Of a stretch of 64,000 nt of DNA, positions 3,366 to 56,255 are shown piece after piece. The stretch is from the NCBI RefSeq assembly GCF_056746865.1, contig NZ_CM163382.1; one strand, written 5' to 3'. How positions within the stretch are numbered: position 1 is the stretch's first letter; each line of letters starts with the position of its first letter. The notes under the pieces are model-generated. The model was not told the DNA's origin, ran no database searches, and saw only the letters and a program-made list of their open reading frames with translations. The position numbers and the translations under genes are program-made.

Positions 3366-3906
3366 TGGACATCGACTCAGCCTTCCGTTCCAGGAATCCA
3401 TCGGGAACAGGAATAGTTTGTGAAGCATCCAGCCAAACCTGATGATTAATTCGTTTATATATTCTTAACCCTCCCCCAATTGCATAGACACTTGTTCCTA
3501 CTCTGACTACCTTAATTATAGCTGTTCTCATGTCTGAGGATTTAGAAATAGGAATATCCAGATTATTTTCTCGTCCCTTGTATTCTCTGGTTTTGTAGCT
3601 TATGACTTCACAGTCGATATCAACTATAACTAATTCAGTTTGGGAAGGTGACCATCCAGCCGATATCGTTGGATAGCTCAAATTACCGAAAGACATCCCA
3701 AACACCCTGTTTTCAGGAGGGTTGTCAATAACTATTGATACCAGCTTGTGTTTAGGCATGTAATAGTCGTTGCCATATTCGATATGATTTTCATCAATTT
3801 TTTCAATTAATAATAAGCCAACGCGGCCATGTTCAAAGCCATATGTACAATCATATACTTCAAAATTTTTAAAGGTTTTATCCCAACGTTCTTGACTAAT
3901 AATCAT
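2866..3906 (-). CDS. Hypothetical protein, paralog B (346 aa) with beta-propeller-like repeats resembling BNR/Ycf48 or Kelch blades
   Basis: Intact 346-aa ORF; the C-terminal ~155-160 aa (from DLSGFSESDMYAVGG) are identical to paralog C, the N-terminal half about 60 percent identical; repeated blade-like motifs (YAIGGG...W, YAVGGTGTVYHFNGEQW, FDGAIWKGRNEQW, YDGNAW). Confidence 0.75.
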   Translation of the reverse strand: MIISQERWDKTFKNFEVYDCTYGFEHGRVGLLLIEKIDENHIEYGNDYYMPKHKLVSIVIDNPPENRVFGMSFGNLSYPTISAGWSPSQTELVIVDIDCEVISYKTREYKGRENNLDIPISKSSDMRTAIIKVVRVGTSVYAIGGGLRIYKRINHQVWLDASQTIPVPDGFLERKAESMSRSLFQDLSGFSESDMYAVGGTGTVYHFNGEQWKKLPFPTNKLLYTVCCAGDGFVYIADFDGAIWKGRNEQWTQITHGGMTMPFLDMGWFDGRLWCASDYGIWVLEDDKLVLAMHAKHKPVPPEVAVLSKRIDVSPDGTVMMVCGSRGAAIYDGNAWNVLFDSMAFE

Positions 3907-15671: not shown

Positions 15672-15705
15672 CCGCTCTCATCCATTCGATGAGAGCGGTT
15701 TTTTT
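15672..15705. terminator. Rho-independent terminator between convergent pheP and ybdG
   Basis: Hairpin ccgctctcatc/gatgagagcgg followed by a T run (ggttttttt). Confidence 0.75.
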
Positions 15706-26736: not shown

Positions 26737-26955
26737 ATGGCATTCAGTAATCCCTTCGATGATCCGCAGGGAGCGTTTTACATTTTGCGCAATGCGCAGG
26801 GGCAATTCAGTCTGTGGCCGCAACAATGCGCCTTACCGGCAGGCTGGGACGTTGTGTGTCAGCCGCAGTCACAGGCGTCCTGCCAGCAGTGGCTGGAAGC
26901 CCACTGGCGTACTCTGACACCGTCGAATTTCACCCAGTTGCAGGAGGCGCAATGA
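26737..26955 (+). CDS. ybdZ: MbtH-like protein YbdZ
   Basis: MAFSNPFDDPQGAFYILRNAQGQFSLWPQQCALPAGWDVVCQPQSQASCQQWLEAHWRTLTPSNFTQLQEAQ; overlaps the fes stop and the entF start. Confidence 0.9.
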   Translation: MAFSNPFDDPQGAFYILRNAQGQFSLWPQQCALPAGWDVVCQPQSQASCQQWLEAHWRTLTPSNFTQLQEAQ

Positions 26956-29900
26956 GCCAGCATTTACCTTTGGTCGCCGCACAGCCCGGCATCTGGATGG
27001 CAGAAAAACTGTCAGATTTACCCTCCGCCTGGAGCGTGGCGCATTACGTTGAGTTAACCGGAGAGGTTGATGCGCCATTACTGGCCCGCGCGGTGGTTGC
27101 CGGATTAGCGCAAGCAGATACGCTGCGGATGCGTTTTACGGAAGATAACGGCGAAGTCTGGCAGTGGGTCGATGATGCGCTGACGTTCGAACTGCCAGAA
27201 ATTATCGACCTGCGAACCAACATTGATCCGCACGGTACTGCGCGGGCATTAATGCAGGCGGATTTGCAACAAGATCTGCGCGTCGATAGCGGTAAACCAC
27301 TGGTCTTTCATCAGTTGATACAGGTGGCGGATAACCGCTGGTACTGGTATCAGCGTTATCACCATTTGCTGGTCGATGGCTTCAGTTTCCCGGCCATTAC
27401 ACGCCAGATCGCCAATATTTACTGCGCATTGCTGCGTGGCGAACCAACGCCTGCTTCGCCGTTTACGTCTTTCGCTGATGTAGTGGAAGAGTATCAGCAG
27501 TACCGCGAAAGTGAAGCCTGGCAGCGTGATGCGGCATTCTGGGCGGAACAGCGTCGTCAACTGCCACCGCCCGCGTCACTTTCTCCGGCACCTTTACCGG
27601 GGCGCAGCGCTTCGGCAGATATTTTGCGCCTGAAACTGGAATTTACCGACGGGGAATTCCGCCAGCTGGCTATGCAACTTTCAGGTGTGCAGCGTACCGA
27701 TTTAGCCCTTGCGCTGGCGGCTTTGTGGCTGGGGCGATTGTGCAATCGCATGGACTACGCCGCCGGATTTATCTTTATGCGTCGACTGGGCTCGGCGGCG
27801 CTGACGGCTACCGGACCCGTGCTCAACGTTTTGCCGTTGGGGATTCACATTGCGGCACAAGAAACGCTGCCGGAACTGGCAACCCGACTGGCAGCACAAC
27901 TGAAAAAAATGCGTCGTCATCAACGTTACGATGCCGAACAAATTGTCCGTGACAGCGGGCGAGCGGCAGGAGAGGAACCGCTGTTCGGTCCGGTACTCAA
28001 TATCAAGGTATTTGATTACCAACTGGATATTCATGGTGTTCAGACGCAAACCCATACCCTGGCAACCGGTCCGGTTAATGACCTTGAACTGGCCCTGTTC
28101 CCAGATGAACACGGTGATTTGAGTATTGAGATCCTCGCCAATAAACAGCGTTACGATGAGCCAACGTTAATTCAACACGCTGAACGCCTGAAAATGCTGA
28201 TTGCCCAGTTCGCCGCGGATCCGGCGCTGTTGTGCGGCGATGTCGATATTATGCTGCCAGGTGAATATGCGCAGCTGGCGCAGATCAACGCCACTCAGGT
28301 TGAGATTCCAGAAACCACGCTGAGCGCGCTAGTGGCAGAACAAGCGGCAAAAACACCGGATGCTCCGGCGCTGGTTGATGCGCGTTACCAGTTTAGCTAT
28401 CGGGAAATGCGCGAACAGGTGGTGGCGCTGGCGAATCTGCTGCGTGAGCGCGGCGTTAAACCAGGCGACAGCGTGGCGGTGGCGCTACCGCGCTCGGTCT
28501 TTTTGACCCTGGCGCTGCATGCAATTGTTGAAGCAGGCGCGGCCTGGCTACCGCTGGATACCGGCTATCCGGACGATCGTCTGAAGATGATGCTGGAAGA
28601 TGCGCGCCCGTCGCTGTTAATCACCACCGACGATCAACTGCCGCGCTTTGCCGATGTTCCAGATTTAACCAGCCTTTGCTATAACGCCCCGCTTAAACCG
28701 CAGGGCAGTGCGCCGCTGCAACTTTCACAACCGCACCACACGGCTTATATCATCTTTACCTCCGGTTCCACCGGCAGACCGAAAGGGGTAATGGTCGGGC
28801 AGACGGCTATCGTCAACCGCCTGTTGTGGATGCAAAACCATTACCCGCTTACAGGCGAAGATGTCGTTGCCCAAAAAACGCCGTGCAGTTTTGATGTCTC
28901 GGTGTGGGAGTTTTTCTGGCCGTTTATTGCCGGGGCGAAACTGGTGATGGCTGAACCGGAAGCGCACCGCGACCCGCTCGCTATGCAGCAATTCTTTGCC
29001 GAATATGGCGTAACGACCACGCACTTTGTGCCCTCTATGCTGGCGGCATTTGTTGCTTCGCTGACGCCGGAAACTGCTCGCCAGAGTTGCGCGACCTTGA
29101 AACAGGTTTTTTGTAGCGGTGAAGCCTTACCGGCCGATTTATGCCGCGAATGGCAACAGTTAACCGGCGTGCCGTTGCATAATCTATATGGCCCGACGGA
29201 AGCGGCGGTAGATGTCAGCTGGTATCCGGCTTTTGGCGAGGAACTGGCACAGGTGCGCGGTAGCAGCGTGCCGATTGGTTATCCAGTGTGGAATACGGGC
29301 CTGCGTATTCTTGATGCGATGTTGCATCCGGTGCCGCCGGGTGTGGCAGGCGATCTCTATCTCACCGGCATCCAACTGGCGCAAGGGTATCTGGGACGAC
29401 CCGATCTGACCGCCAGCCGCTTTATTGCCGATCCTTTTACCCCAGGTGAACGCATGTACCGTACCGGAGATGTTGCCCGCTGGCTGGAAAACGGCGCGGT
29501 GGAGTATCTCGGGCGTAGTGACGATCAGCTAAAAATTCGTGGTCAGCGAATTGAACTGGGCGAAATCGATCGCGTGATGCAGGCGCTGCCGGATGTCGAG
29601 CAAGCTGTTACCCACGCTTGTGTGATTAATCAGGCGACAGCCACCGGGGGGGATGCGCGTCAGCTGGTGGGCTATCTGGTGTCGCAATCAGGTCTGCCGT
29701 TGGATACCAGCGCATTGCAGGCGCAACTGCGCGAAACATTGCCGCCGCATATGGTACCCGTCGTTCTGCTGCAACTTCCACAGTTACCTCTTAGCGCCAA
29801 CGGCAAGCTGGATCGCAAAGCCTTACCGTTGCCTGAACTGAAAGCACAAGCGCCGGGGCGTGCGCCGAAAGCGGGCAGTGAAACGATTATCGCCGCGGCA

Positions 29901-30833
29901 TTCTCGTCGTTGCTGGGTTGTGACGTGCAGGATGCCGATGCTGATTTCTTTGCGCTTGGCGGTCATTCGCTACTGGCAATGAAACTGGCTGCGCAGTTAA
30001 GTCGGCAGTTTGCCCGTCAGGTGACGCCGGGGCAGGTGATGGTCGCGTCAACTGTCGCCAAACTGGCAACGATTATTGATGGTGAAGAAGACAGCTCCCG
30101 GCGCATGGGATTCGAAACCATTCTGCCGTTGCGTGAAGGTAATGGCCCGACGCTGTTTTGTTTCCATCCTGCGTCCGGTTTTGCCTGGCAGTTCAGCGTG
30201 CTCTCGCGTTATCTCGATCCACAATGGTCGATTATCGGCATTCAGTCGCCGCGCCCTCATGGCCCCATGCAGACCGCGGCAAACCTGGATGAAGTCTGCG
30301 AAGCGCATCTGGCAACGTTACTTGAACAACAACCGCACGGCCCTTATTACCTGCTGGGGTATTCGCTGGGCGGTACGCTGGCGCAGGGCATAGCGGCGCG
30401 ACTGCGTACCCGTGGTGAACAGGTGGCATTTCTTGGCTTGCTGGATACCTGGCCGCCAGAAACGCAAAACTGGCAGAAAAAAGAGGCTAATGGTCTGGAC
30501 CCGGAAGTACTGGCGGAGATTAACCGCGAGCGCGAGGCCTTCCTGGCGGCACAGCAGGGAAGTACTTCAACGGAGTTGTTTACCACCATTGAAGGCAACT
30601 ACGCTGATGCTGTGCGCCTGCTGACGACTGCTCATAGTGTACCGTTTGACGGTAAAGCGACGCTGTTTGTTGCTGAACGCACGCTTCAGGAAGGTATGAA
30701 TCCCGAACGCGCCTGGTCGCCGTGGATTGCGGAGCTGGATATCTATCGTCAGGATTGTGCGCATGTGGATATTATCTCTCCGGTGGCGTTTGAAAAAATT
30801 GGGCCGATTATTCGTGCGACGCTAAATAAGTAA
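26952..30833 (+). CDS. entF: Enterobactin synthase component F (NRPS: C-A-PCP-TE, serine-activating)
   Basis: Translation from MSQHLPLVAAQPGIWMAEKLSDLPSAWSVAHYVELTGEVDAPLLARAV... matches EntF; contains the adenylation core FTSGSTGRPKGV, the PCP motif FFALGGHSL and the thioesterase GYSLGG. Confidence 0.95.
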   Translation: MSQHLPLVAAQPGIWMAEKLSDLPSAWSVAHYVELTGEVDAPLLARAVVAGLAQADTLRMRFTEDNGEVWQWVDDALTFELPEIIDLRTNIDPHGTARALMQADLQQDLRVDSGKPLVFHQLIQVADNRWYWYQRYHHLLVDGFSFPAITRQIANIYCALLRGEPTPASPFTSFADVVEEYQQYRESEAWQRDAAFWAEQRRQLPPPASLSPAPLPGRSASADILRLKLEFTDGEFRQLAMQLSGVQRTDLALALAALWLGRLCNRMDYAAGFIFMRRLGSAALTATGPVLNVLPLGIHIAAQETLPELATRLAAQLKKMRRHQRYDAEQIVRDSGRAAGEEPLFGPVLNIKVFDYQLDIHGVQTQTHTLATGPVNDLELALFPDEHGDLSIEILANKQRYDEPTLIQHAERLKMLIAQFAADPALLCGDVDIMLPGEYAQLAQINATQVEIPETTLSALVAEQAAKTPDAPALVDARYQFSYREMREQVVALANLLRERGVKPGDSVAVALPRSVFLTLALHAIVEAGAAWLPLDTGYPDDRLKMMLEDARPSLLITTDDQLPRFADVPDLTSLCYNAPLKPQGSAPLQLSQPHHTAYIIFTSGSTGRPKGVMVGQTAIVNRLLWMQNHYPLTGEDVVAQKTPCSFDVSVWEFFWPFIAGAKLVMAEPEAHRDPLAMQQFFAEYGVTTTHFVPSMLAAFVASLTPETARQSCATLKQVFCSGEALPADLCREWQQLTGVPLHNLYGPTEAAVDVSWYPAFGEELAQVRGSSVPIGYPVWNTGLRILDAMLHPVPPGVAGDLYLTGIQLAQGYLGRPDLTASRFIADPFTPGERMYRTGDVARWLENGAVEYLGRSDDQLKIRGQRIELGEIDRVMQALPDVEQAVTHACVINQATATGGDARQLVGYLVSQSGLPLDTSALQAQLRETLPPHMVPVVLLQLPQLPLSANGKLDRKALPLPELKAQAPGRAPKAGSETIIAAAFSSLLGCDVQDADADFFALGGHSLLAMKLAAQLSRQFARQVTPGQVMVASTVAKLATIIDGEEDSSRRMGFETILPLREGNGPTLFCFHPASGFAWQFSVLSRYLDPQWSIIGIQSPRPHGPMQTAANLDEVCEAHLATLLEQQPHGPYYLLGYSLGGTLAQGIAARLRTRGEQVAFLGLLDTWPPETQNWQKKEANGLDPEVLAEINREREAFLAAQQGSTSTELFTTIEGNYADAVRLLTTAHSVPFDGKATLFVAERTLQEGMNPERAWSPWIAELDIYRQDCAHVDIISPVAFEKIGPIIRATLNK

Positions 30834-30848
30834 ATTTATATTATCTAT

Positions 30849-30890
30849 AAACCCATAATTACAGAAAATAATTATGGGTTTATCATTTGT
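30849..30890 (+). terminator. Putative rho-independent terminator after entF
   Basis: Perfect 13-bp inverted repeat aaacccataatta / taattatgggttt with a 7-nt loop, followed by a T-rich stretch. Confidence 0.6.
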
Positions 30891-31048
30891 TTAATTTATA
30901 AATTTGGTGGGTGTTTCTCTGAAATAGAGTGAATGTTGCATTCAGTGGGAGTAATTTACAAACTTCAGCTTCGGATAAATCTCACCAACTGGTAGAGTGG
31001 GGGCCGTGGAGATTTACTCTTATTGGACTCATTTTCAGGTTATACCCC

Positions 31049-32167
31049 ATGTCATCACTGAATATTAAACAGGGAAGTGACACTCATTTTCCCGAGTATC
31101 CTCTGGCGTCGCCCAGTAATAATGAAATTGATTTACTTAATCTAATCGAAGTTTTATGGCGGGCCAAAAAAACGGTCATGGCGGTCGTTTTTGCGTTTGC
31201 CTGCACAGGATTGCTGATCTCTTTCATCCTGCCGCAAAAATGGACCAGCGCGGCGGTTGTCACGCCTCCAGAACCTGTTCAGTGGCAGGCGCTTGAGAAA
31301 ACATTCACTAAGCTTCGTGTGCTGGATCTGGATATCAAAATTGATCGTACAGAAGCATTTAACCTGTTTATCAAGAAGTTTCAGTCGGTTAGCTTGCTGG
31401 AAGAGTACCTGCGCTCAACACCTTATGTGATGGACCAATTAAAAGAGGCGAAAATCGACGAGCTGGATTTGCATCGCGCAATTGTCGCATTGAGCGAAAA
31501 AATGAAAGCGGTTGATGACAATGCCAGTAAGAAAAAAGATGAACCGTCACTGTATAACTCCTGGACGCTAAGTTTTACCGCGCCAACCAGTGAAGAGGCG
31601 CAGACCGTTTTGAGCGGGTATATCGATTATATCTCTGCGTTGGTGGTGAAAGAGTCGATAGAAAACGTCCGTAATAAACTGGAGATCAAAACCCAGTTTG
31701 AAAAAGAAAAACTGGCTCAGGACCGCATTAAAACGAAAAATCAACTTGATGCAAACATTCAGCGCCTCAATTATTCACTCGACATTGCTAACGCGGCAGG
31801 AATTAAAAAGCCCGTTTACAGTAATGGTCAGGCCGTTAAAGATGACCCCGATTTCTCTATTTCTCTCGGCGCAGACGGTATTGAACGCAAACTGGAAATT
31901 GAAAAAGCGGTTACTGACGTTGCGGAACTGAACGGTGAATTACGTAATCGTCAGTATCTTGTTGAGCAGTTAACAAAAGCAAATATCAACGATGTGAATT
32001 TTACGCCGTTTAAATATCAGTTAAGCCCGTCATTGCCAGTGAAAAAAGACGGTCCGGGTAAGGCGATTATTGTGATCCTTTCTGCGATGATCGGCGGGAT
32101 GGTGGCTTGTGGTGGCGTGCTGTTGCGCCATGCGATGGCATCCAGAAAACAGGATGCCGTGATGTAA
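31049..32167 (+). CDS. fepE: FepE, polysaccharide co-polymerase (Wzz-like chain-length regulator)
   Basis: Translation from the internal Met, MSSLNIKQGSDTHFPEYPLASPSNNEIDLLNLIEVLWRAKKTVMAVVFAFACTGLLISFILPQKW... Confidence 0.9.
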   Translation: MSSLNIKQGSDTHFPEYPLASPSNNEIDLLNLIEVLWRAKKTVMAVVFAFACTGLLISFILPQKWTSAAVVTPPEPVQWQALEKTFTKLRVLDLDIKIDRTEAFNLFIKKFQSVSLLEEYLRSTPYVMDQLKEAKIDELDLHRAIVALSEKMKAVDDNASKKKDEPSLYNSWTLSFTAPTSEEAQTVLSGYIDYISALVVKESIENVRNKLEIKTQFEKEKLAQDRIKTKNQLDANIQRLNYSLDIANAAGIKKPVYSNGQAVKDDPDFSISLGADGIERKLEIEKAVTDVAELNGELRNRQYLVEQLTKANINDVNFTPFKYQLSPSLPVKKDGPGKAIIVILSAMIGGMVACGGVLLRHAMASRKQDAVM

Positions 32168-34995: not shown

Positions 34996-35024
34996 TGATA
35001 ATGAAATTAATTATCGTTATCGAT
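34996..35024. promoter_or_regulatory. Fur box in the divergent fepDGC / entS promoter region
   Basis: gataatgaaattaattatcgttatcgat resembles the Fur consensus. Confidence 0.6.
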
Positions 35025-37305: not shown

Positions 37306-37445
37306 AAGTCAGCTTCCTGTTATTAATGAAGTTAATGCTTCTCATTTTCATTGTAACCACAACCAGATGCAACCCCGAGTTGCAGATTGCGTTACCTCAA
37401 GAGTTGACATAGTGCGCGTTTGCTTTTAGGTTAGCGACCGAAAAT

Positions 37446-37464
37446 ATAAATGATAATCATTATT
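37446..37464. promoter_or_regulatory. Fur box in the divergent fepB / entCEBAH promoter region
   Basis: ataaatgataatcattatt is a near-consensus Fur box. Confidence 0.75.
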
Positions 37465-37493
37465 AAAGCCTTTATCATTTTGTGGAGGATGAT

Positions 37494-56221: not shown

Positions 56222-56255
56222 AAAAAAGCCCGCCAGGTGGGCTTACCTGGCGGGC
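56222..56255 (-). terminator. Rho-independent terminator of citT
   Basis: Hairpin gcccgccaggt / acctggcgggc preceded on the plus strand by aaaaaa (a U run on the minus-strand transcript), 30 bp downstream of the citT stop. Confidence 0.7.

Follow-up and report, generated by a model that had tools for sequence, protein, structure and literature searches.

The window, i.e. the whole stretch of 64,000 nucleotides of E. coli DNA that was analysed, contains entF followed on the same strand by fepE. A hairpin lies in the spacer between the two genes (Table 1). Gene identities (entF, wzz(fepE)) were taken from the RefSeq annotation of E. coli strain 118UI, which is 100% identical to the window over 351 bp around the site. 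In the 118UI record entF and wzz(fepE) flank the site and nothing is annotated between them. The spacer of K-12 shows 91% identity to that of the window.

Table 1. Positions of the entF-fepE elements and of further elements of the window referred to in the text.
Feature	Position	Strand	Basis or remark
entF coding region	26952..30833	+	ORF end, RefSeq over identical sequence; start predicted from the K-12 entF length (3882 nt)
entF stop codon TAA	30831-30833	+	ORF list
5' arm ATAAACCCATAATTA	30847-30861	+	repeat finder
A tract in 5' arm	30847-30851	+	
CCC clamp in 5' arm	30852-30854	+	
Loop CAGAAAA, 7 nt	30862-30868	+	
3' arm TAATTATGGGTTTAT	30869-30883	+	repeat finder
GGG clamp in 3' arm	30876-30878	+	
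U-rich tail TTTATCATTTGTTTAATTTATAAA	30879..30902	+	interrupted compared to K-12 TTTTTTATTTGTTTG
Imperfect inverted repeat CTGAAATAGAGT / ACTCATTTTCAG	30919-30930 / 31027-31038		83% complementary, 96 nt apart
Conserved block GTTTCrGATAAtTCTnAC..CTGnTAGArT	30968-30998		3573-3601 in locus L045
Candidate fepE promoter: TTCGGA (30970-30975), 17-nt spacer, TGgTAGAGT (-10 hexamer 30993-30998)	30970..30998	+	predicted
fepE / wzz(fepE) coding region, regulator of very long O-antigen chain length	31049..32167	+	
Perfect hairpin, 11 bp, GC-rich	15672-15698		followed by TTTTTTT
Perfect hairpin, 11 bp, GC-rich	56228-56255		no T tail
Best Fur-box match of the window	34997-35021	both	15-16/19, overlapping matches
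Best Fur-box match of the window	37440-37470 (37446)	both	15-16/19, overlapping matches

The stem of the hairpin contains only three G-C pairs and is otherwise composed of A-U pairs. From the position of the entF stop codon it follows that the 15-bp stem begins 13 nt later, and the ATG of fepE is located 165 nt beyond the stem. The last 5 nt of the 3' arm (TTTAT) double as the beginning of the U-rich tail, which reads TTTATCATTTGTTTAATTT when counted from the GGG clamp on. The initial annotation had described a perfect inverted repeat, aaacccataatta-cagaaaa-taattatgggttt, with arms of 13 bp, about 15 bp past the entF stop, about 160 bp before the fepE start and followed by a T-rich stretch. 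The repeat is found at 30849-30881, both distances agree with those measured (the 13-bp version starts at 15 nt) and the T-rich stretch is present. The arms, on the other hand, are 15 nt long.

The RNA of the + strand folds into this hairpin with an energy of -15.3 kcal/mol (z = -5.6), and none of 200 shuffled sequences is equally stable. This calculation had been proposed as a check, and the observation of a hairpin is confirmed. The corresponding fold of the - strand has an energy of -17.8 kcal/mol and is likewise unmatched by any shuffle. The entF hairpin is the longest perfect hairpin of the window, and stems of at least 13 bp occurred in none of 100 first-order Markov-chain simulations of the window. 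A simple terminator scan flagged the hairpin both in the window and in K-12. Over the 301 nt of K-12 that were scanned around the spacer no other terminator-like site was called, and shuffles lead to an expectation of 0.3.

The hairpin sequence is present in one copy within the window. The 56-nt hairpin region was found in 4,888 of 5,426 E. coli genomes; per genome, the median is one place and the maximum two. A Rfam scan of 30300-31500 with E-values up to 10 returned only sub-threshold chance hits (unrelated snoRNA and Staphylococcus families). The single copy per genome and window and the lack of a Rfam match therefore identify the hairpin as a locus-specific element and not a dispersed repeat. 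About 540 of the 5,426 genomes, e.g. S3 and C 237-04, are far more diverged at the 3' end of entF, in the spacer and at the 5' end of fepE.

The 3' end of entF, the spacer and fepE (30790-32167 of the window; also loci L002, L005 and L008) are highly polymorphic in E. coli. The S3-type allele, which is strongly diverged and AT-rich, is present in ~10% of complete E. coli genomes, and its divergence begins within the last ~45 nt of entF. With 45%, the GC content of fepE is lower than that of entF and fepC (55-56%), and this suggests that the O-antigen length regulator was subject to recombination or was exchanged horizontally. In E. coli LR-58-1 (105-161 of locus L094) the K-12-type sequence right after the T run of the putative terminator is replaced by GTGCACAGAAAACCCCCAGCTAGGCTGGGGGTTCCGG..., a segment that resembles one end of an element inserted between the terminator and fepE.

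For comparison, 80 Enterobacteriaceae loci were gathered using the C-terminus of EntF as query and the sequence past each entF stop was read. A homologous hairpin is present in most loci in which fepE follows entF on the same strand. It was found in Escherichia spp., E. albertii, many Citrobacter, Intestinirhabdus and Salmonella enterica subsp. arizonae and diarizonae. The comparison set comprises 28 distinct sequences from E. coli, Escherichia, Citrobacter, Salmonella and Intestinirhabdus. These hairpins share the core (A)AACCCATAAT...ATTATGGGTT(T) with a T-rich run behind it, and they are located 13-39 nt past the stop codon. The loop comprises 3-11 nt and is conserved neither in length nor in sequence. 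The core CCATAAT/ATTATGG, on the other hand, is nearly invariant across genera, so that the sequence is conserved beyond structural need.

In a structure-blind MAFFT alignment of 27 sequences, 97.8% of the cells of the ten inner pairs are paired and five of these ten pairs show both-sided changes. One clamp pair is C-G throughout the 27 sequences, and the remaining two are almost throughout. For covariation a score of 0.346 was obtained, compared to 0.150 ± 0.016 in shuffles and to at most 0.088 with the pairing partners slid. None of 500 shuffles reaches the observed score; as the compared sequences are kin, such shuffle counts are not probabilities, and the slid-partner controls, which retain this kinship, are also far lower. 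A covariance-model alignment (29 hits) gives the same picture with both-sided changes in 8 of 15 pairs. Compensatory changes are C-G to G-C in Escherichia sp. MOD1, C-G to U-A in Escherichia sp. E1V33, U-A to C-G in E. albertii and the S3 type, and A-U to U-A in the MG48 and PK8276 alleles.

The two strands differ in how they tolerate these substitutions. Among the non-Watson-Crick cells of the helix, 36 are G·U in the reading of the + strand, whereas only 3 are A·C, i.e. G·U on the - strand. The O157:H7 allele contributes one further + strand G·U. The region 3' of the GC clamp is conserved in its T-richness (on average 6.5 of 9 positions), compared to an A-richness of 4.3 of 9 on the 5' side. 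A T-rich tail directly past the clamp is present in every genus compared. In Salmonella the upstream A tract consists of just AAA with CGCG before it. The wobble asymmetry, the variable loop and the conserved 3' T-richness indicate that selection acts on a hairpin of the + strand RNA together with a U-rich tail on its 3' side. This is how an intrinsic terminator is built. The hairpin is real and non-random, and as a structure of the + strand RNA it is, with its U-rich tail, under purifying selection.

Intrinsic terminators carry a run of ~7-9 U immediately 3' of the stem. The U tract of the window, UUUAUCAUU (6 of 9 T), is broken after three U, whereas K-12 has UUUUUUAUU; the tails read GGGTTTATCATTT and GGGTTTTTTATTT, respectively. 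As a consequence of the change in the window tail, TTTAT pairs with the upstream ATAAA and the stem becomes perfect at 15 bp. In the tail, strain 789 and K-12 carry UUUUUUU, the window UUUAUC and other E. coli alleles UGAAUC or CUUAUC.

Terminator strength was expressed as d score, a classical discriminant that combines hairpin energy and T tract, calculated with the formula of d'Aubenton-Carafa et al. (1990) and with ViennaRNA energies; owing to the modern energy parameters, the score provides a relative ranking only and is not a calibrated prediction. Background windows of 83 nt have a median of -76 and a 95th percentile of -46, and none is above 0. The scores are +20.3 for E. coli strain 789, +13.6 for K-12, +10.9 for E. 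albertii and +7.1 for the S3 type. Most Citrobacter and both Salmonella range from about -4 to +10, with positive values for both Salmonella and for several Citrobacter, and C. braakii, C. werkmanii and Citrobacter On2M from -21 to -57. The window allele has a score of -22.8, which is below the threshold because its U tract is broken, and above the 95th percentile of the background. The alleles MG48, 47258 and OkiPb have poor tails and scores of -34 to -60; in these alleles the stem is better conserved than the U tract. Judged from its tail, the window terminator is probably leakier than the K-12 type due to the interruption of the U tract. The next longest perfect hairpins of the window are the two of 11 bp listed in Table 1. 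The one at 15672-15698 has a strong canonical terminator score (d = +42.9).

In several lineages the AT-rich hairpin is replaced. C. amalonaticus-type loci (L010, L013 and L016, ~3418-3480) contain an unrelated GC-rich hairpin in the entF-fepE spacer, with the stem ..CGTAAC / GTTACGGGGG... In L010 the hairpin TCCTCCGTAAC...GTTACGGGGGA is followed by T8 (d = +34.6), in L016 it has a T-rich tail (d = -17.5) and in L013 the stem is imperfect and the tail poor. Pseudocitrobacter, Pseudescherichia vulneris and a few others also have unrelated GC-rich hairpins instead. Where entF faces fepC directly (Enterobacter, Klebsiella, Kluyvera, Kosakonia and others), GC-rich hairpins or REP-like repeats are found at this position. 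The locus of Citrobacter sp. MGH106 (L055, 3403-3600) contains an insertion of ~130 bp between entF and the ancestral AT-rich hairpin. This insertion carries a 15-bp GC-rich hairpin, ACCCCAGTCACTTAT..GTAAGTGACTGGGGT, and coinciding with it the 3' arm of the ancestral hairpin is decayed (TTATTAATTT). What the lineages have in common is some hairpin after entF, of whatever sequence.

In Enterobacter (L067, L072, L080, L081, L085 and others) the entF-fepC gap is filled by long GC-rich palindromic units, CCCTCTCCCC..GGGGAGAGGG, which are often duplicated. In Kluyvera, Kosakonia and Klebsiella it is filled by REP-like GCCGGATAAGGCG units.

The hairpin is quite likely the Rho-independent (intrinsic) terminator of the Fur-regulated fes-ybdZ-entF transcript, acting in the + strand RNA. 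It combines a sense-strand stem-loop, a G-C stem base next to the U tract, covariation and a position after the entF stop. Features that speak against a terminator are the score of the window allele below the threshold, the still lower scores of some E. coli alleles with a better conserved stem than U tract, the low number of G-C pairs, the operon name that includes fepE and the core, whose sequence conservation exceeds structural need. As an element the hairpin is ordinary and its kind is well known; the records examined do not annotate it. According to the proposed mechanism, RNA polymerase would pass the entF stop codon and the nascent RNA would fold into a stem with the conserved CCC/GGG clamp at its base and an A-U rich upper part. 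The clamp directly abuts the U-rich stretch, and completion of the hairpin should therefore destabilise the weak rU:dA hybrid and free the transcript. Both the ending of transcripts at the hairpin and the efficiency of termination are what we infer from these features. In the window allele termination is probably incomplete; it would act as a partial terminator with some iron-regulated read-through reaching fepE. A literature search found neither a paper describing an entF terminator nor published RNA 3'-end mapping for the entF-fepE hairpin.

A second conserved element is located between the hairpin and fepE. This region is otherwise poorly conserved between genera, but the block listed in Table 1, ~50-80 nt upstream of the fepE ATG, is kept from Escherichia to Enterobacter and Pseudescherichia, even with a different terminator. 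It contains the candidate fepE promoter of the window. In Salmonella a promoter scan called TTCAGA-17-TAGAAT with an upstream TG (TGtTAGAAT) within the block. Most of the transcription of fepE would start at this promoter. Perhaps the block also holds a regulator site. The imperfect inverted repeat CTGAAATAGAGT / ACTCATTTTCAG flanks the candidate promoter on both sides.

In papers and databases the unit is named fes-ybdZ-entF-fepE, which implies read-through; the documentation of read-through into fepE is indirect. Published expression data fit partial termination combined with an independent fepE promoter. In a serum transcriptome of ExPEC, iron-poor inactive serum induced fes, ybdZ and entF, whereas fepE answered only active complement (PMC4145685). 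Under pressure-induced iron stress entF, fes and ybdZ were up 3.5- to 13.7-fold and fepE was unlisted (PMC6049941). The log2 changes between microaerobic and aerobic growth were -5.04, -4.96, -3.10 and -1.69 along fes-ybdZ-entF-fepE (PMC8910356). The wzz-fepE transcript was undetected in K-12 in rich medium, and fepE of Salmonella is reportedly activated by PmrA, according to a statement there that cites Pescaretti 2011 (PMC8129183).

The conserved terminator together with the conserved fepE-proximal promoter suggests that fepE forms a largely separate transcription unit; in published transcriptomes it is only partly coupled to entF. The initial annotation had proposed a terminator that separates fepE from the entF transcript. 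Comparative evidence supports the terminator, but "separates" is too strong since fepE partly follows entF. A separate fepE unit would explain why fepE and entF diverge in transcriptomes. fepE is a virulence-related regulator of O-antigen length, and only a leaky coupling to iron starvation would remain. The significance lies mostly in correct annotation. A single operon, fes-ybdZ-entF-fepE, is assumed in databases and papers.

Alternatively, the hairpin could mainly stabilise or process the 3' end of the mRNA, with transcription ending further downstream or entering fepE. The stem-loop would then block 3'-to-5' exonucleases and the entF message would outlive the fepE part, comparable to the REP of malE-malF. 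Several E. coli alleles keep the stem better than the U tract, the tails of MG48, 47258 and OkiPb being poor, and this could point to such a hairpin-only function. The name of the unit and the stepwise decrease of the expression changes along it are also in line with this role. However, every genus has a T-rich tail immediately behind the GC clamp, the d score places most alleles among the terminators and the C. amalonaticus-type substitute is a GC-rich hairpin with a T8 run in L010. A mainly stabilising role is therefore considered unlikely. It is compatible with termination, as the hairpin of a terminator can also protect the released 3' end.

It is still less likely that the hairpin acts as a bidirectional terminator, which would also halt antisense (- strand) transcription from the fepC/fepE side. 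The - strand hairpin is the more stable one and is followed by UUUAUAGAU in E. coli, and the matching A tract and U tract around the stem are typical of this class. However, there is no adjoining convergent gene, since fepE runs in the same direction as entF. Conservation of the upstream A tract is lower than that of the downstream T-richness, as illustrated by Salmonella, and the G·U wobbles of the + strand correspond to A·C mismatches on the - strand.

The initial annotation had also considered the AT-rich palindrome as a protein-binding site. Such a double-stranded DNA operator would bind a dimeric regulator, either Fur or another regulator of fepE. The palindrome is perfect, it belongs to the Fur-regulated ent cluster, its core is nearly invariant across genera and the best match to the Fur consensus (12/19) overlaps the hairpin. 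A match of 12/19 is common in AT-rich DNA, whereas the true Fur boxes of the window reach 15-16/19, and a Fur box at the hairpin was therefore rejected. These Fur boxes (Table 1) presumably correspond to the divergent promoter regions of fepD/entS and fepB/entC. A DNA operator should treat G·T and A·C alike, in disagreement with the strand asymmetry of the wobbles. Furthermore, the both-sided changes preserve pairing and not sequence, the arms are spaced by loops of variable length (3 to 11 nt) and the substitute hairpin of C. amalonaticus-type loci is unrelated. An operator is thus a very improbable explanation. Finally, an origin of the palindrome by chance or from a dispersed repeat family (REP/BIME-like or MITE) can practically be dismissed despite the REP-like repeats after entF in other Enterobacteriaceae, as the simulations did not reach 13 bp, the element is single-copy without Rfam family, which led to the rejection of the repeat families, and its conservation across genera is backed by covariation.

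Three further candidates in this region were set aside. Promoter hexamers over the hairpin (ATTACA-17-TATCAT, 30858-30886) are not found at the same position of K-12 and were taken as a chance match in AT-rich sequence. A leader attenuator served by an entF-internal promoter (TCGTCA-18-TATTAT, 30746-30775) would depend on weak hexamers (9/12) in coding sequence. The entF end of the S3 type diverges, and its alignment begins downstream of these hexamers. Rho-dependent termination in the spacer is unlikely, as its low C content, which is below that of G (14% C, 20% G), makes a Rho utilisation site improbable.

With the hairpin read as an intrinsic terminator, the natural alleles of its U tract supply a simple gradation of terminator strength that lends itself to testing. 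They might set differing levels of read-through from the ent operon into fepE, although this is rather doubtful. If true, some lineages, possibly that of the window, would couple very long O-antigen chains to iron starvation and others would insulate them. The strict conservation of CCAUAAU/AUUAUGG could reflect an RNA-binding factor that modulates read-through.

Among known systems, the Fur box (GATAATGATAATCATTATC) is likewise an AT-rich palindrome of the enterobactin cluster. The entF hairpin differs by its match of 12 out of 19 positions, by its varying arm spacing and by substitutions that keep RNA pairing and not DNA sequence. With the REP stabilisers of malE-malF the hairpin shares the location between two genes of one nominal operon with unequal expression. 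In contrast to these, it is single-copy, is not a REP sequence and has a U-rich tail; elsewhere it is substituted by a GC-rich hairpin (with 8 T in L010). Bidirectional, A-tract-assisted terminators resemble it in the pairing of the upstream AUAAA with the downstream UUUAU and in the ability to fold on both strands. The entF hairpin, however, is located between co-directional genes, and conservation and wobbles favour the + strand only.

In its anatomy the hairpin also resembles canonical terminators of Enterobacteriaceae such as trp t, rrnB T1 and lambda tR2. Common features are a sense-strand stem-loop just past a stop codon, G-C pairs at the stem base by a U-rich tail, and compensatory change. 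The K-12 allele has the textbook tail GGGUUUUUUAUUUGUUU. In contrast to the canonical terminators, the entF hairpin has a long stem of 13-15 bp in which all but three pairs are A-U, and the U tract of the window is broken after three U and partly absorbed into the stem. On account of the long A-U stem and the broken U tract, a lower efficiency than that of canonical terminators is expected.
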